Source of the DNA: a virus
Direction: 5' to 3' (one strand)
Virus record (IMG/VR): IMGVR_UViG_3300022699_000302
Location: 1 to 64,000 of that record
Length of the DNA stretch: 64,000 nucleotides
Shown here: piece by piece, positions 46,510-55,308 of the stretch
Numbering within the stretch: the first letter of the stretch is position 1
Layout: every line of letters begins with the position of its first letter
The notes under the pieces: generated by a model
The model's database searches: none
Told to the model about the DNA's origin: nothing
Seen by the model: only the letters and a program-made list of their open reading frames with translations
Made by a program: the position numbers and the translations under genes

Positions 46510-46514
46510 AGTTG

Positions 46515-46566
46515 GGGGAGGACAGCCGCGTCCGCTGTCCTCCCCTCTCTCACTCCTTTCTTTTTT
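46515..46566 (+). terminator. Hairpin/terminator
   Basis: GGGGAGGACAGC/GCTGTCCTCCCC stem; T-rich tract further downstream. Confidence 0.6.
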
Positions 46567-46679: not shown

Positions 46680-47531
46680 ATGTTCAACCCAGACCATTGG
46701 CTGTGTCCTGGATGTGGGTCGGGACTAGAAAATATCGTAGTCGTGAATGAAGAGTACTCGTCTCAGGTTAATCTGTATGGTCCCGTATTTTCATCGAAGT
46801 CCCCGGGTACACCGCTCACTGATGAGTACATAAAAACTGTTCATGACAATGTTCATGATGAGGGCTGCATAGGCTATGAGTGTCAGGCCTGCACCCTGGA
46901 GTTCTCCAGTCTTGTTCCGGCTGAAGACTCCATCGATAAGGCTTTGTTTGAAGCTCAGAATGACCCTGCATTCGCCGAGCTCATCTCAGTGGTACCCGAA
47001 GGGTTCCGTATGCTTTTCCTCCAACCCAACGGATCTATTTTTGCTGGTGTAAATGCACCCCTACCATCGCCAGGTGGTTGGATACACGGTGGTCCTCTGT
47101 CCTACCAAGGAACCATTGCTCCGATCGTCGAGCATGTGCCCGAGCACATGGATCAGATCACCAAGCTTTACCGTAACCACACCGAACACACCATGCTTGG
47201 AGAACGATTTCTCCACGACGACTTAGACCGGTATCTCTGGACGACGACCTACAACGAAATCGTCATCCATCAAGCGGCCAAAACGGCTGCCCTCTTCCCT
47301 CAGTCGGTGGTTAATGGCGCGCTCTACGATAGCGTGGTGGAAGCTCGCCAGAAGGTCTTGAAGTCGTTTACGTGTTACAAAGACGAGAAAACAGGGGTCA
47401 CCAAGATTGACTTCGCCGCCCCCGTAAAAGCCAAGATGCCGGAGAGCGATCATCCTCTCTCGGGATCTAAAGGGAATGAACCTTGGTGGAAGGTTCGTAG
47501 CTTAATTGAAATGAGTATGGTGACACCATGA
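46680..47531 (+). CDS. WW-motif family protein 1 (N-terminal Zn ribbon)
   Basis: CPGC..CQAC; ends EPWWKVRSLIEMSMVTP; ATG 46680 after GAGGAGG. Confidence 0.75.
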   Translation: MFNPDHWLCPGCGSGLENIVVVNEEYSSQVNLYGPVFSSKSPGTPLTDEYIKTVHDNVHDEGCIGYECQACTLEFSSLVPAEDSIDKALFEAQNDPAFAELISVVPEGFRMLFLQPNGSIFAGVNAPLPSPGGWIHGGPLSYQGTIAPIVEHVPEHMDQITKLYRNHTEHTMLGERFLHDDLDRYLWTTTYNEIVIHQAAKTAALFPQSVVNGALYDSVVEARQKVLKSFTCYKDEKTGVTKIDFAAPVKAKMPESDHPLSGSKGNEPWWKVRSLIEMSMVTP

Positions 47532-48220
47532 AGAAACTGAACAGGCTGATCTATAAAGCGCTAACACCTTTGATGTGGGTTGTTGGAGTGATTGTCGGCG
47601 GCATGTCTTGGATCCATGCAAGGCTTTGGAGGCGCGTAGCTCAGCCCGAACTTCCCAAATCTTTTGAGCCCAAACAGTTGAAGGCTTCTTATGGGCCGAC
47701 TGCGTACTTCCAGTCGACATACACACAGTCGACATATACGCCGTTGGCGTACAAAGGAGGAGGCTTTGGCTTGGGTGCGGGCATCTTCAATGCTGCTCTC
47801 CCCCATCAAGGACTCACTGCTGCACAGATCCAGATCTCAAGATACTTTCAACTGCATCAGTCGATCTTATCGGTCCAACAATGGCTTCAGGGACTGAGTA
47901 GGCAGGGGGAGATACGGGATATTAGCTTTGGATGCGCAAAGGCTGAAGTCCTGGATGATCCGGCTTTTTCTGTCAGCACAAAGACCGAAATAAAGATTCC
48001 GATTTTTGCATCGGTAGAATCCAATAAGCAGGTCCTGGAGAGATCCCGAGTATTCTCTCTGTCCTCTCTTGTCCCGCTCAGTCAGTTCTTGACCAAAGCA
48101 CAGGCCCTCGCCGACCGTTATGTCACGATTTCACCAAAACCAGAAATTCAGCTGATCGAACGATTGTGGTGGAACAGACCACGGTTCGATGAGCTTCATC
48201 TCCAAAAGAAGGGCGCTTAG
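47528..48220 (+). CDS. WW-motif family protein 2 (N-terminal TM helix)
   Basis: ends RLWWNRPRFDELHLQKKGA. Confidence 0.75.
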   Translation: MKKLNRLIYKALTPLMWVVGVIVGGMSWIHARLWRRVAQPELPKSFEPKQLKASYGPTAYFQSTYTQSTYTPLAYKGGGFGLGAGIFNAALPHQGLTAAQIQISRYFQLHQSILSVQQWLQGLSRQGEIRDISFGCAKAEVLDDPAFSVSTKTEIKIPIFASVESNKQVLERSRVFSLSSLVPLSQFLTKAQALADRYVTISPKPEIQLIERLWWNRPRFDELHLQKKGA

Positions 48221-48236
48221 GCGCCCTTTTCTTTTA
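48204..48236 (+). terminator. Intrinsic terminator inside WW array
   Basis: AAGGGCGC-TTAG-GCGCCCTT-TTCTTTTA. Confidence 0.8.
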
Positions 48237-48243
48237 GTTCTAT

Positions 48244-48252
48244 GGCCTAAGA
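48244..48252 (+). promoter_or_regulatory. GGCCTAAGA promoter-like motif
   Basis: Directly after terminator, first G 34 bp upstream of ATG 48278. Confidence 0.65.
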
Positions 48253-48277
48253 AGATGAGTCCTTTTTGGAGAGTCTT

Positions 48278-48727
48278 ATGCCAACATACGCTAAATCCCT
48301 AAGGCCCGTCCTTCCGATGCGAAAAGCGCTGCCTGAGTCTCGTGGGGAGCTAAGGTCTGCAGCTTGTCGGGCCTACAGGGCGTCCGATGGGTGGCTTTAT
48401 GTTTTACCGGCAGCAGATTATTTGCCTCCTGAAGTAGTTTCTCAGGCTATCGACCACGGGTTCAAGACCATCACGCTGGGAAAAGACTGTTTCAACTACT
48501 TCGACAAGGATCCGTCTGCTAGCTGGTGTTCCGGTCACGGAGGGGATTGGCCGGGATATCATGGGAAATCGGATACGTATTTTCACCGAATCTTAATTTC
48601 AAAGATCTCCGCTGTCACAGTTTTCCGTGTCGATGAATTCGGTCGTGAGTGGTGGAAATCGCCGGCTCTGCATGAGCTGAACATGGGAGCGCAGTCAGGA
48701 GGGTCTAATAGTGAAAGAGTCGAGTGA
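48278..48727 (+). CDS. WW-motif family protein 3
   Basis: REWWKSPALHELNMG near C-terminus. Confidence 0.75.
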   Translation: MPTYAKSLRPVLPMRKALPESRGELRSAACRAYRASDGWLYVLPAADYLPPEVVSQAIDHGFKTITLGKDCFNYFDKDPSASWCSGHGGDWPGYHGKSDTYFHRILISKISAVTVFRVDEFGREWWKSPALHELNMGAQSGGSNSERVE

Positions 48728-49211
48728 CGTCAATACAGAGAGACAGATCAACCTAGCCCTCACCCGCATGACTTACGAATTGACAGACCTTTTGCCTCGC
48801 ACCACCTTACAGGAGTATGTGGGAGAGTTGTTTGATCGTGCGGCGTACATCTCAGTCGACGGTTCTGGAAGTGTATGGGCATGGACTGTCAAACCTCGTC
48901 TTCACACGCCTTACAATGGAGCCGTTATTTGGGATGCTCCTTTTGAAGAGGAGCCTGATGATGTCGGCTGTCACCTCGTAGGGCTTAGTACTGTCCTGGC
49001 GGGTGTCATGGCCTCGTGTCATCTTACCCCTTTTGTTTGGTTCGACGAGGGTGAGAATGCCTGGTGGATGAACGCCGACGAGGCATGCCTGGAGCTTACC
49101 CCCAATCTCACCTTCCAGGACATATTCCTGAGTCTGCTGGGTGGTCGGAAAAAGATTGAAAGAGACTGGTGGAACCACACCAGTTTCAGGGAGCTTATTC
49201 TTCATGAATAG
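48711..49211 (+). CDS. WW-motif family protein 4
   Basis: YISVDGSGSVWAWTVKP; ends RDWWNHTSFRELILHE. Confidence 0.78.
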   Translation: MKESSDVNTERQINLALTRMTYELTDLLPRTTLQEYVGELFDRAAYISVDGSGSVWAWTVKPRLHTPYNGAVIWDAPFEEEPDDVGCHLVGLSTVLAGVMASCHLTPFVWFDEGENAWWMNADEACLELTPNLTFQDIFLSLLGGRKKIERDWWNHTSFRELILHE

Positions 49212-49728
49212 CAATAACGAATTTCGTGACAAACAGGTGTTGCGACGTGCTATTATCAGGTCTTACTTCTCGAATTACTTGAGAGGTGTAGGCTCCTCAG
49301 AGTCTTTATGGCGTTCCGCTACCACTTACATCCAAGAGCGGGCGTTATCGCTGACTTCGGAGTCTGCTGCATTCATGGCGATTGATCCTTATTTCCAGTT
49401 CTACGCGTACTCAGCCAAGCCGATTTGGAGAGGGGGTGTGTTTACTCGGCCGGAGTGGCACCCGAATGGCTCTCGATGGTCGAAGATGACTTGTTTGAGT
49501 TTGAGAGGATTGTCGGCGCGTGACGCCCTTTCGGAAATGCTACTGATCGACACCCAGACCGAGGGGTGGGGCGACGGTTTCTACTGGGATCGCGCCATCA
49601 TCAGTAGAGACGAGTCTATCTCAATATTGCTCGATAGGTTGCTGGGTTTTTGCCCCGGAATTGAGTTGTCGAAGAAGGAGTGGTGGAAATTTCCCGTGAT
49701 GTCGGAACTGGTAATGCATAGGGCCTAA
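49204..49728 (+). CDS. WW-motif family protein 5
   Basis: FMAIDPYFQFYAYSAKP; ends KEWWKFPVMSELVMHRA. Confidence 0.78.
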   Translation: MNSNNEFRDKQVLRRAIIRSYFSNYLRGVGSSESLWRSATTYIQERALSLTSESAAFMAIDPYFQFYAYSAKPIWRGGVFTRPEWHPNGSRWSKMTCLSLRGLSARDALSEMLLIDTQTEGWGDGFYWDRAIISRDESISILLDRLLGFCPGIELSKKEWWKFPVMSELVMHRA

Positions 49729-49730
49729 GA
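49722..49730 (+). promoter_or_regulatory. GGCCTAAGA promoter-like motif
   Basis: Overlaps stop of previous gene; first G 38 bp upstream of ATG 49760. Confidence 0.6.
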
Positions 49731-49759
49731 CAACAGAGAAACTTCAACCAGGAGAGGGT

Positions 49760-50020
49760 ATGACTGAGTTTAGTAAGACCTCAGAAGAGGCAGAGTACTT
49801 TGTGATCGCAAACAACAAGGATGAATTCTTGTTGGACAAGAACAACAAGGAATTTCCTTCAATTGTTTTCGTACGACAATTGCGTCGAGCTCATCGGTAC
49901 ACCAAACTAGAGGTGGCTGAAGCCGACGCAATCCATTTCAAGAAGGCGTTGAACCTTGCCGACATCTATGTCGTGGAGGTCAAAGAAACGATCGATTACG
50001 CGATGAGATCATGTCTATAA
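49760..50020 (+). CDS. Hypothetical protein (no WW motif) inside the array
   Basis: 86 aa, AGGAG RBS. Confidence 0.7.
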   Translation: MTEFSKTSEEAEYFVIANNKDEFLLDKNNKEFPSIVFVRQLRRAHRYTKLEVAEADAIHFKKALNLADIYVVEVKETIDYAMRSCL

Positions 50021-50101
50021 ACAAAAAAGGGCCAACCCCCTAAGTCCTTTGCCGAACAGCTCAAGCAGGCCGAGAAGCAAAAGGTCAAATGGCTGGAGTC
50101 G

Positions 50102-50545
50102 GTGATCAAGAAAATGAAAGCGAAATATATAACAATGAGTAGTGGCTATCCCTTCGAAAAGTATGAACAACACAACTACCGTGTTCTCCAGGAAGATGAG
50201 GAAAAACGGGAAGACTTCTTTCAGAAGCTGTCGCACCGAACCGGATTCGAGGTTCGCGCGATCTCCTGGGTCCGAGATCGTGGGTGGGTAGCTTGGAGTT
50301 ATGACATCGAGTACGACCGATTGCCTTTTGTCGGCATCGCGTCGAATTGGAGGAAGGCAGGGGGCCGGCCGCTCTTACCTCAGGACCACAGTTCCCGTAT
50401 CTTGGATTGCCAAATCACGATGGTCCCTCCGGTCGGGGTAAACCAGGAAGAAGCGACCCTAGTTTTGCGGTATCCCCGTGACCCCAGCAGGTGGTGGATC
50501 TACCCCAGATTCGAAGAGCTGAGGACTTGCCGGCAATCGGCATAG
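50102..50545 (+). CDS. WW-motif family protein 6 (5' end anomalous)
   Basis: ends SRWWIYPRFEELRTCRQSA; frame open and protein-like from 50021. Confidence 0.7.
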   Translation: MIKKMKAKYITMSSGYPFEKYEQHNYRVLQEDEEKREDFFQKLSHRTGFEVRAISWVRDRGWVAWSYDIEYDRLPFVGIASNWRKAGGRPLLPQDHSSRILDCQITMVPPVGVNQEEATLVLRYPRDPSRWWIYPRFEELRTCRQSA

Positions 50546-50609
50546 ACTTATTCATTCATTTCTATTTCGAAGCGCGGACGAACCGCGCTTCTTTCATTGG
50601 GGAGGAGTT

Positions 50610-51110
50610 ATGGAAGAAGACGCTGAAGCATCGAATGAGAATCTTCCTGATATTCTAGAAGAACTAGAGCTGCTCGATGCCACAGAGGACGCCCAGGAGG
50701 CTCACGGAATCCCTCCGACGGTCGAATACCCTTTCAGGTTACTGAAGAGGTCCGCTGAAGCACGAGCCGAGCTCTTCGCTATGATCGAGGAAAGATCCTC
50801 GCTAAAAGGTCCGTTCAAGTGTGTGGTCTATCAGCCCACCCTCAGGTCATGGATTACAACCACTGGGATGGTTGAGTTTGAGGGTAAAGCGTGGTTTTGG
50901 GCACGGGGTAAAAACGGAAACCGGTTATACGGCAATACCAAGGACCTGGTGAGTCTTCGGTTGGATGTGGTTCTTCTGTCAGATCTGGACAAAAAGCTCA
51001 GCTTCCAGAATCGAATCATTATCAACGACCGATTCAATCGGTTTTCCCGGCGGGAGTGGTGGAAGGAGGCCCGCATGGCTGAGATGAGGATGGTGAACCA
51101 TGGCGACTAA
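50610..51110 (+). CDS. WW-motif family protein 7
   Basis: GGAGGAG RBS; ends REWWKEARMAEMRMVNHGD. Confidence 0.78.
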   Translation: MEEDAEASNENLPDILEELELLDATEDAQEAHGIPPTVEYPFRLLKRSAEARAELFAMIEERSSLKGPFKCVVYQPTLRSWITTTGMVEFEGKAWFWARGKNGNRLYGNTKDLVSLRLDVVLLSDLDKKLSFQNRIIINDRFNRFSRREWWKEARMAEMRMVNHGD

Positions 51111-51588
51111 TGATTCAACCCAGACCTATCAGGCCTGGTACATCGGATACAAACCCGACGGAACCAATTCGCCTCCTGCATATGCAGGGATAAATAACTC
51201 TTGGACTATGGTGCTGAACTACGAAAGGGTGAAATCGGATCCCGAGTATCGGAATAGGGTGCTTAAGACTATTCTCAACGATAAGGGGTGGGAAAACAGT
51301 CAATGCATATTTCTTGGGCGGAAACGCAGCGGCGTCTGGATGGTTTATTCTTATCCGACCCGGTGGAGCTCTTATTTCCAGAACTGGCTTCTGGACGAGG
51401 ATCGTGGAGCTTCTATCCCTCTAAGCGATCATAGATCTCGTCCTCTGGCTGAATTTGGTATCGACCTAATTACTGACAAAGATCTTAGCGAGCCCGTAGG
51501 TATGTACCTCCTGGGCGAGGATCTGCCTATTCAGCGGGACTGGTGGAAGCACAGTAGATTCAAGGAGATCACATGCAGGAAGGCTTAA
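51100..51588 (+). CDS. WW-motif family protein 8
   Basis: ends RDWWKHSRFKEITCRKA. Confidence 0.78.
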   Translation: MATNDSTQTYQAWYIGYKPDGTNSPPAYAGINNSWTMVLNYERVKSDPEYRNRVLKTILNDKGWENSQCIFLGRKRSGVWMVYSYPTRWSSYFQNWLLDEDRGASIPLSDHRSRPLAEFGIDLITDKDLSEPVGMYLLGEDLPIQRDWWKHSRFKEITCRKA

Positions 51589-52103
51589 CGCCTCAGACGA
51601 TCCAGGATCGTCTTTCCATAATTGCGAACTCTATTTTTGAGCTAACTAAGGACGTAGCGGTCTGGGAGATCGACCAGATCTACCACGTCGTTTATTTTCC
51701 GAATTCATGGGCTCGTTTTCTGGTCTTTCCTCTCAATACCGAATTTACTTTTCTTGACGACAAATACCTGGTCATGTGGCCGACTAGTGTGACTCCGATT
51801 CCGACATGTCGAACCGACGGTCTTAGTTTAGAAAGCTCCCTCAAGAAAGCAGGTCTTTGTCCTGATCAGGAGCGTGGGTTGATCTTCAACATGGTGCTCT
51901 CAGATCCTGAGGGTTCATGGGAGCATGAGGCCCGAGCCACAAGGTCTTCCTATGTCATTGATCATATCGGCGGCGGTGTGCTGATCCCTTTGTCTCGATG
52001 GCTTGCGCGCCCCGCCCTCATGAAAACATGGTGGAACCACTCCCACCTGAAGGAGCTTGTGTTGGTCGCATCGGATGCAGCCAAGGAGGAGATCAGTGAC
52101 TGA
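51573..52103 (+). CDS. WW-motif family protein 9
   Basis: KTWWNHSHLKELVL near C-terminus. Confidence 0.78.
   Translation: MQEGLTPQTIQDRLSIIANSIFELTKDVAVWEIDQIYHVVYFPNSWARFLVFPLNTEFTFLDDKYLVMWPTSVTPIPTCRTDGLSLESSLKKAGLCPDQERGLIFNMVLSDPEGSWEHEARATRSSYVIDHIGGGVLIPLSRWLARPALMKTWWNHSHLKELVLVASDAAKEEISD
52062..52084 (+). promoter_or_regulatory. 23-bp dyad element, copy 6
   Basis: TTGGTCGCATCGGATGCAGCCAA then GGAGGAG RBS of the next gene. Confidence 0.75.
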
Positions 52104-52539
52104 ATTCTACATGAAGCAAATCATTGTTGCTGAGGACTGGAACGAGCTCCTCAACTCAGCAATGAGGCAAATCATCGCTAAGGCAGTTCGCAAGGCAGTT
52201 CGCAAGGCGAGGCCTCCTCACATAGATACATCCCAGCTGTGGCTGTATTGGTCTGCTCTTTTGAATGAGTGGTGTGTGGCGACACAAAAACTGGAGTTCG
52301 ACTCATATACAGCGGTCTGGAACTGGCCCAAGGACATGCCACCGTACGACCGGAGGCACCGGAGGCAATGGAGAGCTTTCCTGCTGAAGACCTTCAATAT
52401 TCATTTGAAGCTCGAAAACATAGATCTCCCTGATAACCAAGAGGAGCGGATCATCCCGTTGACCAGCACCCCCGATCTTCGGGATTGGTGGAATCACTCC
52501 CACCTGAAAGAGCTGCAATGTGTAAGGAGCAGATCATGA
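52096..52539 (+). CDS. WW-motif family protein 10
   Basis: GTG 52096 after GGAGGAG; ends RDWWNHSHLKELQCVRSRS. Confidence 0.78.
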   Translation: MTEFYMKQIIVAEDWNELLNSAMRQIIAKAVRKAVRKARPPHIDTSQLWLYWSALLNEWCVATQKLEFDSYTAVWNWPKDMPPYDRRHRRQWRAFLLKTFNIHLKLENIDLPDNQEERIIPLTSTPDLRDWWNHSHLKELQCVRSRS

Positions 52540-53057
52540 CACCAGAACAACAATTGAAATCTATCAGAAAGCAGTTATTCGCTCTCATCAAGGGTTGGTT
52601 CGACGATTACGGTATACCTCTTTCCACGGTATTGATCTGGGAAGAAGCGGTCGAGGCTGCGTATCAGAGGAAACTCGACGGAAATAAGATACAAGCGGTA
52701 ACCATTGAAAAGTACGAAATCGAGGATACCTGGTCGGTCTATGCACACCTGGTCGATCCGATCTACTCGAAGGAGGGGGAGGAGTGGCTCCCCTTCCACG
52801 AAAGTGACTTCCCTTCGATGATCGCCAAGTGTGTGGAGATCACCGCAGTCAACAAGACTCTTTCCGAATGCTTTCTTGACCTTCAGATCGACCCCAACGC
52901 ACATGCCACGCCGGAAAAGGCAGTGATCTATCGCGGTAGGAGCGAGAGTACTTTTGAGCTTCTGGTCGAAAGGATGCTGGGTCTTGCTGCCTCCGGAACC
53001 TTGGTCGAGCCGGATTGGTGGAACCACCGCAGGTTTAAGGAGTTGATCCATGGATAA
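52536..53057 (+). CDS. WW-motif family protein 11
   Basis: AAGGAG RBS, ATGA coupling; ends PDWWNHRRFKELIHG. Confidence 0.78.
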   Translation: MTPEQQLKSIRKQLFALIKGWFDDYGIPLSTVLIWEEAVEAAYQRKLDGNKIQAVTIEKYEIEDTWSVYAHLVDPIYSKEGEEWLPFHESDFPSMIAKCVEITAVNKTLSECFLDLQIDPNAHATPEKAVIYRGRSESTFELLVERMLGLAASGTLVEPDWWNHRRFKELIHG

Positions 53058-53562
53058 AGTCCCTCAACCCAGTGCGTACTGGGTGTTGTACGATCAATTG
53101 AAGCGAAATGTAGATAGTCTCAACGAGCTCGATATCTGGGACCATGCCAAGAAGGACTCCGAAGCTGGTTACGTCTCGGGGTTCAACCCTTTAGCAATAG
53201 CCATGGATCGTGATTTTTCGTGCTATGCCTACGCAGACACGCCGAGATTCACGGACTACGTAGGCATATGGTACCCCCTGGCACTTGCGAAGCCTCCAGC
53301 GCTCGGACGGTATATCAAGTTGGCTGAGCTCACCAATCAGCTTTTGAGAGCAGTAGCGGATCTCGGCTGGAGTGGTGATCTCCGCATACCCTTTCCGCAA
53401 AACGCGGTTGTTCTCTGTGGGGAGCAATCTCCAACACTTGATCTGCTGTTGAAGCGTGCGTTCGGCATAAGAAGCGGTCCTGCTGAAGCAACTCCGGGAC
53501 CCAGTGTTCCGAGGAAATGGTGGACCCACCACCGATTCCGATTGGAGGTCGGTCATGCATGA
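53050..53562 (+). CDS. WW-motif family protein 12
   Basis: IAMDRDFSCYAYADTP; ends RKWWTHHRFRLEVGHA. Confidence 0.78.
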   Translation: MDKVPQPSAYWVLYDQLKRNVDSLNELDIWDHAKKDSEAGYVSGFNPLAIAMDRDFSCYAYADTPRFTDYVGIWYPLALAKPPALGRYIKLAELTNQLLRAVADLGWSGDLRIPFPQNAVVLCGEQSPTLDLLLKRAFGIRSGPAEATPGPSVPRKWWTHHRFRLEVGHA

Positions 53563-54016
53563 TGTTTCCCTAGCCAGCCGGAGAGCCCGTCTCGAACAGA
53601 TTTCATCAATGTTGGAGCGGATATCTCCCTGGAAGTTGGCTGATGAGAGTTTGGGAGTTTACTGCCCCTCTGGTGAAGGTGTTGCGCAGTATCTAGCCAT
53701 AGACTACGACGGGAGCGTATATACATACGAGGGAAAGCCTGTCTTCGACACAAGGGCAGGGGTTTGGATGCCCTCACAGAAACACCCAGACTGCTACACT
53801 CGGGTATCTCCCCTCTCTGACTTGGTTTGCAGCCTTCCGAAGGAGTGTCGTCTCAGCCATACATCGCCGAATCATGAGACGGTGAAACGAGCCTTTGTCA
53901 AACGGGAATCACCGTTCATCATCGCTGTACAGAATTTCCTCGGTCTTGGCGGATACGCCGAACGCGATTGGTGGAATCACTTACGGTTCGAAGAAATGAT
54001 GTTGTCTACGGCCTAA
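53555..54016 (+). CDS. WW-motif family protein 13
   Basis: YLAIDYDGSVYTYEGKP; ends RDWWNHLRFEEMMLSTA. Confidence 0.78.
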   Translation: MHDVSLASRRARLEQISSMLERISPWKLADESLGVYCPSGEGVAQYLAIDYDGSVYTYEGKPVFDTRAGVWMPSQKHPDCYTRVSPLSDLVCSLPKECRLSHTSPNHETVKRAFVKRESPFIIAVQNFLGLGGYAERDWWNHLRFEEMMLSTA

Positions 54017-54060: not shown

Positions 54061-54633
54061 ATGTATCCAAAACCCGACTTAGAGGGAGAAGAGGAGGAAT
54101 TGCCGCCTAAGCCCAAACCTAAGAAGCCCAGGCCCAAGCCCGGGCCCAAGTCCAAGCATAAGGCGGTGCCTCCCGGTTTCCCCGAACCACTGGATGAATC
54201 CCAGGAAAGAAAGGAGTTGCTGGAACAGAAGCATCTGGTCAATTACGACAGCTTGGCCAAGTCTGAGCGGAACATGCTCAAGACTACTGCGGAGACCTCA
54301 GTTGAGCTGGAAAAGGCTCGAGAGGTCACAGCGGACCGGTACAACAAACTGTGTGAGGCCGAGTACGAAGTAGAGGATGTCGAGTACGGTTTAGCCAAAG
54401 CAGAACAGAAGCTGGAGGATTACCAGCAATCAACGGTTGGCCGGCTCAAGGCACGCCTGATCAAGCTGATAAGCGGTTACCCCATTATCGATAAGCTTGA
54501 GGAGGAGATCGCAGCCCTACACATCAAGCAGGAGACTGCCATGAATGAGTATGAGGCTGCAACGAAAGCATGGCAGGACGCTCTGGAGAAGGAGCGCCGA
54601 ATCGCGGAGATCAACCGCAAAGACAACCCGTAG
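54061..54633 (+). CDS. Coiled-coil protein with Pro/Lys-rich N-terminus
   Basis: 190 aa, CAGGAG RBS. Confidence 0.72.
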   Translation: MYPKPDLEGEEEELPPKPKPKKPRPKPGPKSKHKAVPPGFPEPLDESQERKELLEQKHLVNYDSLAKSERNMLKTTAETSVELEKAREVTADRYNKLCEAEYEVEDVEYGLAKAEQKLEDYQQSTVGRLKARLIKLISGYPIIDKLEEEIAALHIKQETAMNEYEAATKAWQDALEKERRIAEINRKDNP

Positions 54634-54651
54634 CTAAGGGGGATAGAGTAC

Positions 54652-55245
54652 ATGGGTAAGACCAAGGACAAGGACAAGGCCGAGGAGACCGAGGAACGAG
54701 AGTTCCCGACGATCAAGCCGACGTTCCTGCCCGGCCAGATAGTCTGGCTGATCGATGACGACGACGTCGACGAAGAGTACGACTGTCCGGCCTGCAAGGC
54801 ACACGGACAGATCAAGCTCTACGACGAAGAAGCGTATGACTGCCCGAAGTGTCACGGCAAGGGTCAGCTCAAGCGCAAGGTCGTCGAGTTCTTCGTGAAG
54901 TCACCGGCACTGGTCTACGAGTTCGACTTCACCTGCACGCTCAAAGATCAGGCGGTCCGCGAGACCTACGATCTCAAGCTGCCGGAGAAACTCGCAGAGA
55001 ACGATGCCCGGTTCAAGACCGGCAAGGATCTCGACTGGGAGAACGCCACGGCATACCGCCGGGTCAACCGGATCGTGCCGCTCCTGATCGCACCGACCTA
55101 TGAAGAGGCGATCGAACGTGCTGAGACCCTGACGAAAACGGATCGAGAGGCCAAAGAACGAGAAGAGGCCGAGAAGCGGAAGAAGCAGCAGGAAGAGGCC
55201 AAGGAAAAGGCCCGCAAGAATGAGCTGATGTCCGCAATGAAGTAA
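54652..55245 (+). CDS. Hypothetical protein with two CxxC motifs (DnaJ-type Zn-finger-like)
   Basis: CPACKAHG..CPKCHGKG; charged C-terminus. Confidence 0.7.
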   Translation: MGKTKDKDKAEETEEREFPTIKPTFLPGQIVWLIDDDDVDEEYDCPACKAHGQIKLYDEEAYDCPKCHGKGQLKRKVVEFFVKSPALVYEFDFTCTLKDQAVRETYDLKLPEKLAENDARFKTGKDLDWENATAYRRVNRIVPLLIAPTYEEAIERAETLTKTDREAKEREEAEKRKKQQEEAKEKARKNELMSAMK

Positions 55246-55273: not shown

Positions 55274-55308
55274 AGAAGGACCCTCATATCGGGGGTCCTT
55301 CTTTTTTA
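55274..55308 (+). terminator. Intrinsic terminator
   Basis: AGAAGGACCC/GGGTCCTTCT stem + TTTTTA. Confidence 0.8.

Follow-up and report, generated by a model that had tools for sequence, protein, structure and literature searches.

The window analysed here is the 64,000-nucleotide (nt) stretch that forms the first third of a complete 194,114-bp virus genome with direct terminal repeats (IMG/VR record IMGVR_UViG_3300022699_000302). At 46.6–54.0 kb it carries an array of 14 tightly packed, co-oriented genes, 13 of which, according to the listing of open reading frames (ORFs), encode proteins with a short Trp-Trp motif near the C-terminus. These genes belong to a family that we call, in this report, the WW-tail family, after its shared Trp-Trp C-terminal peptide. 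Its members are built of a body, a linker and a tail, the bodies evolve fast and the tail slowly, and related phages carry arrays of such genes. They are small, mostly soluble, fast-diverging phage proteins. With a confidence that falls a little short of even, we read them as variable accessory proteins that a C-terminal short linear motif would tether to one conserved partner. The features discussed below are summarized in Table 1.

The motif and its distribution

The 13 genes for which the motif had been predicted, among 14 consecutive ones, all proved to carry it in plus-strand ORFs, the exception being g06x (49760-50020). The WW pair lies 11–23 residues before the C-terminus in the 13 proteins, and the Glu follows the second Trp by 7 residues in 12 of them, as had been noted; it is shifted by one in g13 (RFRLE). 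The motif as originally worded is present but extends further, with an Arg at -2 and [LMC] at +11. The consensus of the 38 members collected, which come from the phage of the window and from three other contig sets, is P-R-[DE]-W-W-[KN]-[HY]-x-x-[LF]-x-E-[LM]-x-[LMC], a 14-residue peptide near the C-terminus. Among these members WW is invariant, [LFM] occupies +6 in all 38, [LMI] occupies +9 in 37 and Glu occupies +8 in 36, while the Arg at -2 is found in 26 and a Pro at +4 in 14. From WW to the end of the protein there are 10–24 residues, and after the motif itself 1–15, mostly polar.

In the window, a six-frame regular-expression search found the motif nowhere outside the array, in agreement with the original prediction. 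The same search of the whole genome added a second cluster of four minus-strand members (h1–h4) at 83,762-87,165, three with Glu and one an E-to-D variant, which brings the genome to 17 copies; the sole other match contains a stop codon and is a chance hit. The 17 family genes amount to 8.6 kb, or 4.4% of the genome. The pattern WW-x6-[ED]-[LMIV] occurs within the last 32 residues of 16 of the 585 ORFs of at least 100 amino acids (aa), compared with 0.07 on average, and never more than 2, in 300 residue shuffles. A hidden Markov model (HMM) of the tail, the check proposed at the outset, separated the members (E-values from 1e-8 to 4e-16) from everything else (E >0.02).

Codon usage at the motif varies. 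At the Glu position of the 17 copies we counted GAG 11 times, GAA five times and the Asp codon GAC once; five codons are in use for the conserved Leu, and Phe (TTC/TTT), Asn (AAC/AAT) and Lys each use both of theirs. Synonymous codons thus vary at conserved sites, and selection therefore acts on the protein. The adjacent genes g10 (52029-52058) and g11 (52486-52515) both have WWNHSHLKEL as the ten-residue core of the tail, and their DNA agrees there at 27 of 30 bases, while the orthologs of these two genes on the related contig L013 (see below) differ from each other in the tail, which suggests occasional short gene conversion between neighbours.

Body, linker and tail

The original prediction had pointed to a shared (Y/F/I)-x-(A/S)-x-D...(Y/W)-x-(Y/W)-x3-P element in four of the proteins. 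It is found in g04, g05, g13 and g14, with a variant in g12, and these five window genes align end to end with ten genes from relatives, forming what we call subfamily A. Their body is a domain of about 130 residues. It starts with helices that contain a conserved Trp (W26), continues with the hairpin h-h-A-I-D-x-x-G-x-V-Y-A-Y-x-x-x-P, which is followed about 9 residues later by another Trp (W71), and ends with an A-h-I strand and an LL-x-R-x-LG helix. Between this last helix and WW lie 7–27 residues of unconserved sequence, and then comes the tail.

An AlphaFold2 model of g14, built on 15 subfamily A sequences, had a predicted local distance difference test (pLDDT) score of 82 and a predicted template modelling (pTM) score of 0.76. 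Most of the body is modelled at pLDDT 81–95, with an N-terminal block at 71 and one loop block at 62. The last 23 residues are at only 56–60, yet they have the highest column information (2.3 bits versus 1.0–1.9). An earlier model (pLDDT 62) gave nothing meaningful in fold searches, and with the second model the best PDB Z score was 3.2 and the best Foldseek E-value 0.6, neither of which is a convincing match.

When the tails were removed and the profiles compared with hhalign, subfamily A matched any other subgroup with a probability below 2%, and the best pair overall reached 59%; the comparison links g07, g08, g11 and one gene of contig L016 weakly (44–59%). Two additional modules had been noticed and were both recovered. 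The two CxxC pairs of g01, a gene that was retrieved in the protein profile search as P0002, give weak Rubredoxin and Zn_ribbon matches, and g02 has a hydrophobic N-terminal helix (Kyte-Doolittle 1.73 at residues 11-29). It is the only member with a membrane-type helix; the others look soluble, with isoelectric points from 4.6 to 10.

Evolution and relatives

Relatives of the family were found in a profile search of 1.84 billion cluster representatives, which gave 23 hits. Eight were foreign, all eight with the C-terminal motif, and they sit on four short metagenome (Logan) contigs, L013–L016. On L013 (5.7 kb) each gene from g03 to g13 has a syntenic counterpart, the 86-aa non-member included; the ortholog of g03 is L013:2-457 (34% identity), and g04 pairs with L013:468-977 in the tree of subfamily A with support 100/100. 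L014 carries the last WW gene and, after it, d1 and d2, the two genes that end the array's operon in the window. Six WW genes followed by a g06x-like gene are found on L015, and five WW genes around a g06x-like gene on L016. A more distant phage (contigs of up to 195 kb, with an AAA ATPase 61% identical to that of the second cluster) has a single member, ending GDWWKYPHMTELRF. Relatives are present in the sequencing runs SRR17165164, SRR17165179 and SRR26387399 and in JGI 3300025861 / ENA ERZ27257434.

Comparison of the window with the syntenic L013 and L014 revealed very different rates within one operon. The WW genes are 23–42% identical to their orthologs (59% for g07), with non-synonymous divergence (dN) of 0.32–1.13, versus 78–80% identity and dN of 0.11–0.15 for the non-family genes g06x, d1 (79%, dN 0.12, L014 ortholog) and d2 (78%, dN 0.15, L014 ortholog). 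Within the pairs of WW-gene orthologs, the 16-residue tail is 43–67% identical, compared with 19–39% for most bodies (59% in g07). Synonymous divergence (dS) is saturated for most of these pairs, and positive selection is therefore indistinguishable from weak constraint. In the tree of subfamily A the window–L013 ortholog pairs are recovered with support of 100, 99 and 89, together with one pair specific to L015, and the branches measure 1–4 substitutions per site.

All other searches returned no further relatives. Pfam, queried with g01–g10 and with the 15 subfamily A members (alignment A2), gave nothing at E <0.01 and no family common to more than one member; PHROGs, with ten members, gave a single match at E 0.029; and PDB sequence searches with the subfamily A alignments A2 and A3 gave no match. 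Searches of 50,697 phage records, by tblastn with g14 and by blastn with the complete array, were also negative, no cultured phage giving a match, and a word-indexed search of 5.8 billion proteins (with g14 and a 17-sequence profile) retrieved only proteins of this genome. An IMG/VR scan for the pattern D-W-W-N-H...E-[LIM] yielded 11 loci, about the chance expectation and none a credible member, and IMG/VR probes with a 454-aa upstream gene, d2 and the AAA ATPase detected no close relative. Nothing came from scans of JGI metagenomes, whether with g06x or with an alignment of d2, the ESM Atlas gave no usable hit, and a literature search found nothing relevant on the family. As the IMG/VR and JGI scans added no relatives, the family looks confined to a small clade.

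Genomic context

Likely gene starts were chosen by their Shine-Dalgarno context (Table 1); AGAGGAGGT precedes the ATG of g01 at 46680, and at most starts the gene overlaps the preceding one by 4–17 bases. From its position after the hairpin at 46514..46566, the array is predicted to open a new transcription unit. Four terminator-like hairpins read from the sequence probably bound three such units, at 46.6–48.2, 48.3–50.5 and 50.6–55.3 kb, the last of which also holds d1 and d2. The first of these two proteins is coiled-coil-like, and d2 (54652-55245) has a zinc finger of the DnaJ/Anti-TRAP CxxCxGxG type (E 4e-5, below the Pfam cut-off).

Table 1. Genes and hairpins of the array, and the second cluster (window coordinates unless stated otherwise)
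Feature	Position	Strand	Length (aa)	Description
Terminator-like hairpin and T-run	46514..46566	+		12-bp GC-rich stem, then TTTCTTTTTT; closes upstream unit
g01	46680..47531	+	283	WW-tail member EPWWKVRSLIEM; two CxxC pairs in body
g02	47528..48220	+	230	WW-tail member RLWWNRPRFDEL; N-terminal hydrophobic helix
Terminator-like hairpin	48207..48230	+		10 pairs, 6 GC, T-rich tail; overlaps g02 stop, divides array
g03	48278..48727	+	149	WW-tail member REWWKSPALHEL; long tail, 23 residues past WW
g04	48711..49211	+	166	WW-tail member, subfamily A RDWWNHTSFREL
g05	49204..49728	+	174	WW-tail member, subfamily A KEWWKFPVMSEL
g06x	49760..50020	+	86	Sole non-family gene within array; single copy in genome
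g07	50114..50545	+	143 (from ATG 50114)	WW-tail member SRWWIYPRFEEL
Terminator-like hairpin	50569..50591	+		9 pairs, 7 GC; after g07, second division of array
g08	50610..51110	+	166	WW-tail member REWWKEARMAEM
g09	51100..51588	+	162	WW-tail member RDWWKHSRFKEI
g10	51573..52103	+	176	WW-tail member KTWWNHSHLKEL
g11	52096..52539	+	147	WW-tail member RDWWNHSHLKEL
g12	52536..53057	+	173	WW-tail member, subfamily A PDWWNHRRFKEL
g13	53050..53562	+	170	WW-tail member, subfamily A, variant tail RKWWTHHRFRLE
g14	53555..54016	+	153	WW-tail member, subfamily A RDWWNHLRFEEM; modelled protein
d1 and d2	54061..55245	+	190 and 197	Conserved non-family genes ending the operon
Terminator-like hairpin and T-run	55274..55307	+		Ends operon; read from sequence
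h1–h4 (second cluster)	83762-87165 of the genome	minus (L001:3762-7165)		Tightly packed with an AAA ATPase of 461-470 aa

The array adjoins genes of replication and nucleotide metabolism, and the recognizable genes of the window encode DnaB, an initiator-like protein, dCTP deaminase and thymidylate synthase; the genes just upstream of the array gave no matches.

g06x, the only non-member within the array, has relatives embedded in all three other contigs that carry several WW genes, with identities of 80% (L013), 42% (L015) and 25% (L016). Its constraint far exceeds that of the genes around it (dN 0.11 to the L013 ortholog), and it matches nothing in Pfam or PDB. A complex prediction for g06x with g14, the one pair modelled, scored 0.01.

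The L013 ortholog of g07 is 334 aa long and starts at an ATG that overlaps the end of the g06x ortholog. The same ATG (MSINKK...) is present in the window, but an extra base in the stretch AAAAAAGGGCCAACCCCC leads to a stop after 10 codons. Beyond that stop, homologous coding sequence runs on in the +1 frame to g07 (window 49990-50125 versus L013:1746-1880). One extra base thus severs the upstream coding sequence at 50012-50113 from g07, and it could be a real frameshift, a sequencing error in a homopolymer or a site of recoding. The window copy of g07 also lacks an insert of about 190 aa.

In the second cluster the minus-strand order is a Glu/Gln-tRNA-synthetase-like gene, two genes of no assigned function, h4, h3, h2, the AAA ATPase (PF00004), h1 and Ro60, the end of h1 being the start of the Ro60 gene. 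The synthetase-like protein encoded by the phage (genome 88763-90454, minus strand; L001:8763-10454) is a full-length class I enzyme of the Glu/Gln type, with a PF00749 match at E 4e-90 and both anticodon-binding domains. The h2–AAA ATPase–h1 adjacency is not kept in relatives whose ATPases are 48–62% identical, and no WW gene was found at 80 IMG/VR loci (1.37 Mb) with distant homologs of this ATPase. Because of these two observations we keep the AAA ATPase as the partner of the tail only as a case of low probability. Downstream of related AAA ATPases, at L017:11764-12075 and L106:2532-2855, there is a conserved gene of about 103 aa with a W-P-W-D-x-x-W-W-K-P element followed by an A-E-L-E-R helix. 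By the HMM this gene is not a family member, and its element is a different Trp-rich one.

Discussion

In this work we describe a phage gene family in which the end of the protein has been kept through a divergence that affected nearly all the rest. The contrast between a variable body and a constant C-terminal tag, proposed in the original prediction, is borne out by four features: for most subgroups, profiles without the tail show no similarity, the tail is the better conserved part, the linker varies, and the tail is modelled with low confidence. The further proposal of effectors or adaptors that dock on one common partner is supported as far as the variable body and the constant tag are concerned; the docking itself, like the identity of the partner and the function of the proteins, is what we infer from this arrangement. 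According to this tethering model, the WW peptide would attach every member to one partner, either a phage protein or a conserved host machine, while specificity or activity would differ between members with their diverging bodies. The family would then be a collection of adaptors or effectors that can replace one another, and the functions served would probably be accessory and non-structural, for instance takeover of the host or resistance to its defences.

Several observations weigh against the tethering model. The fast evolution of the bodies may reflect relaxed constraint rather than an arms race, and gene order is the same in the nearest relative, where no rapid turnover is seen. Some of the similarity between tails may, judging from g10 and g11, have its source in gene conversion. 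The low pLDDT of the tail can be a failure of modelling from a 15-sequence alignment, and not disorder. The members of subfamily A, moreover, are clearly paralogs over their full length, so that their tail could be no more than the best conserved piece of the structure.

This last point leads to an explanation that we consider unlikely but that keeps real weight, namely that one small domain gave rise to all these proteins as full-length paralogs, now diverged to an extreme degree, with no separate common partner. WW would then be the most constrained piece of the fold, perhaps a strand or helix at the C-terminus that caps it, or a handle for homo- or hetero-oligomerization. Consistent with such a role, the end-to-end alignment of subfamily A conserves W26, the AID..YAY..P hairpin, W71 and the LL.R.LG helix together with WW, the bodies of g07, g08 and g11 are weakly similar, and the h-type copies have a second conserved Trp (P-x-h-h-LW) 8–14 residues before WW, with which it could pair in a hairpin; tandem duplication and divergence would account for the array without any tag. 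However, the model, otherwise confident, scores lowest in the tail, the linker before the tail varies in length, and the tail is conserved between subgroups with no detectable relation between their bodies. Core elements usually co-vary with their own body instead of staying identical across paralogs. The original prediction had itself opposed to docking the possibility of ordinary paralogs of a known domain in an array of invariant content. On the first count, at least five window genes do share the domain of about 130 residues, but this domain matches no known family or fold; on the second, the gene order is unchanged in the closest relative, but the arrays of more distant relatives differ from that of the window. 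An anchor at the membrane interface, in which a Trp/Arg/Lys-rich tail (R-D-W-W-K-H-P-R-F-K-E-L) would lie at the surface of the cytoplasmic membrane with lipid as the partner, appears improbable. The tail recalls Trp/Arg-rich interfacial peptides in its composition, its net charge is positive, and g02 also has a transmembrane-type helix. Nevertheless, the position-specific invariance of WW and of the Glu at +8 is unexpected for a signal based on composition, the Pro found at +4 in part of the members breaks a continuous amphipathic helix, and no hydrophobic stretch follows the motif.

A role of the tail in the virion is, in our view, very improbable. The tail would dock cargo inside the procapsid and be cut after [LFM]-x-E by a maturation protease, and the proteins would be packaged and ejected. 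The [LFM]-x-E sequence, present in 36 of 38 members, resembles the L/I-x-E sites at which the T4 prohead protease gp21 cleaves, and large phages are known to package paralogous internal proteins. The WW signal is nevertheless C-terminal, whereas T4 capsid-targeting sequences are N-terminal, the recognizable window genes belong to replication and nucleotide metabolism, and the second cluster lies among an aminoacyl-tRNA synthetase, the AAA ATPase and Ro60; the packaging or ejection version of the original prediction thus found no support. Models of prohead proteases (PF03420, gp21-like, S77; PF04586, HK97-like, S78) matched nothing in the 194-kb genome, and since the standard capsid model PF05065 was also unmatched, the structural proteins of this phage are too divergent for such models. 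Slightly less probable still is a specialized form of tethering in which the WW tag would deliver the target bound by the body to a protein-remodelling or conjugation machine of the phage, as a phage counterpart of F-box/PRANC receptors; the candidates would be the AAA+ ATPase of the second cluster and an E1/ubiquitin-like module at 7.6-12.4 kb of the window. Finally, we give almost no credence to a signal at the nucleic-acid level, in which the block would be kept as the ribosome-binding site (AAGGAG) of the next gene or by gene conversion. The K-E codons AAGGAG of g09 and g12 do form the Shine-Dalgarno sequences of g10 and g13, 6 nt before the ATG (51553-51575 and 53030-53052), weaker cases exist, GGAG-type sequences from motif codons lie 6–11 nt before the starts of g10, g13, g14 and g05, and the g10 and g11 tails are nearly identical in bases. 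This use as a ribosome-binding site is a side effect of gene packing and not the cause of the conservation, because the Glu is equally conserved in g02, g07, g14 and h1, which precede terminators or gaps, and because WW, 33–69 nt ahead of the stop, is too distant to assist initiation. Moreover, the Glu codon is GAA in 5 of 17 copies and synonymous sites vary throughout; codon usage largely refutes this explanation.

In large phages, expanded families whose function is unknown take up much of the genome, and they rarely offer a handle for their study. Here the handle is a 14-residue peptide with an invariant Trp-Trp, kept through a divergence that erased the similarity of the bodies, and its partner, once identified, could serve for 17 proteins at once and reveal the cellular process that the phage targets. 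Should this partner prove to be a hub conserved in hosts, or a remodelling enzyme of the phage, the family would illustrate how effectors diversify around one docking module. The motif would also help to search metagenomes for similar families. If, instead, the tail is structural, the outcome would be only a new domain family of narrow distribution.

Comparison with known systems

Expanded viral families whose members share a constant docking element at one terminus are a known theme, but this particular family, its motif and its body fold match nothing that we found. The statement that no described system has this signature is consistent with the searches made, the family being absent from Pfam, PHROGs and PDB. 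Several known motifs were considered and rejected. In C-terminal sorting signals (LPXTG, PEP-CTERM, GlyGly-CTERM), where the motif precedes a hydrophobic helix and a basic cluster and the protein starts with a signal peptide, the tail has no match, as the 1–15 residues that follow the WW motif are mostly polar, and among the members only g02 has a hydrophobic helix at the N-terminus. The bacterial sliding-clamp motif (QL[SD]LF or QLxLxL) has Gln at position 1 and hydrophobic residues at positions 2, 4 and 5 or 6. The tail, E-[LM]-x-[LMC]-x-x, differs from it: Glu is found in 36 of 38 members, hydrophobic residues are not conserved at the fifth or sixth position, and the clamp motif offers no counterpart to the invariant WW. 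The WxxxE effector family requires three residues between Trp and Glu, in a helical fold, where the WW tail has six after the second Trp.

As for the body, the predicted beta-meander core of subfamily A resembles small BFVD proteins, uncharacterized, from T4-like and other phages (among them I3WVR0 of Acinetobacter phage ZZ1, D9I5X7 of phage 133 and K4F6B6 of Cronobacter phage GAP32) over ~41 residues, at 1.4–2.2 Å and 22–39% identity, with a Foldseek probability near 1; these matches have E-values of 0.006–0.1 and cover a quarter of the protein. One BFVD hit is named DUF4314 (PF14192), but this assignment was rejected, as the Pfam model is unmatched in the whole genome at E ≤10.

The internal proteins of T4 have an N-terminal capsid-targeting sequence that is cleaved, and phiKZ-like phages have paralogous inner-body proteins. 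The WW-tail family is like them in that several phage proteins, paralogous or unrelated, share a short terminal hydrophobic-x-Glu signal; its recognizable neighbours, however, are genes of replication and RNA metabolism. Cargo of the T4 type, with a short N-terminal signal up to an L/I-x-E cleavage site, was rejected, as conservation is lacking at the N-termini and the WW element stands 10–24 residues from the C-terminus.

In architecture there is a parallel with the protease adaptors of the SspB type, which have a folded substrate-binding body, a flexible linker and a C-terminal peptide that binds ClpX. The model of g14 predicts the like for the WW-tail family: a body that folds, a linker of variable length and, outside the fold, a short and conserved peptide at the C-terminus. 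The motif is another one, there is no sequence or fold similarity, and 17 paralogs with unrelated bodies stand against one adaptor, so that the likeness suggested by the model would be one of architecture and not of homology. With the poxvirus ankyrin/PRANC proteins and viral F-box-like receptors, the WW-tail family shares the tandem expansion, the fast divergence and the combination of a variable part with a constant C-terminal element. In those proteins the constant element docks on one machine, as we propose for the WW tail; PRANC is a folded domain of about 50–60 residues that binds eukaryotic Skp1, whereas the WW element is a 14-residue peptide in a bacteriophage.

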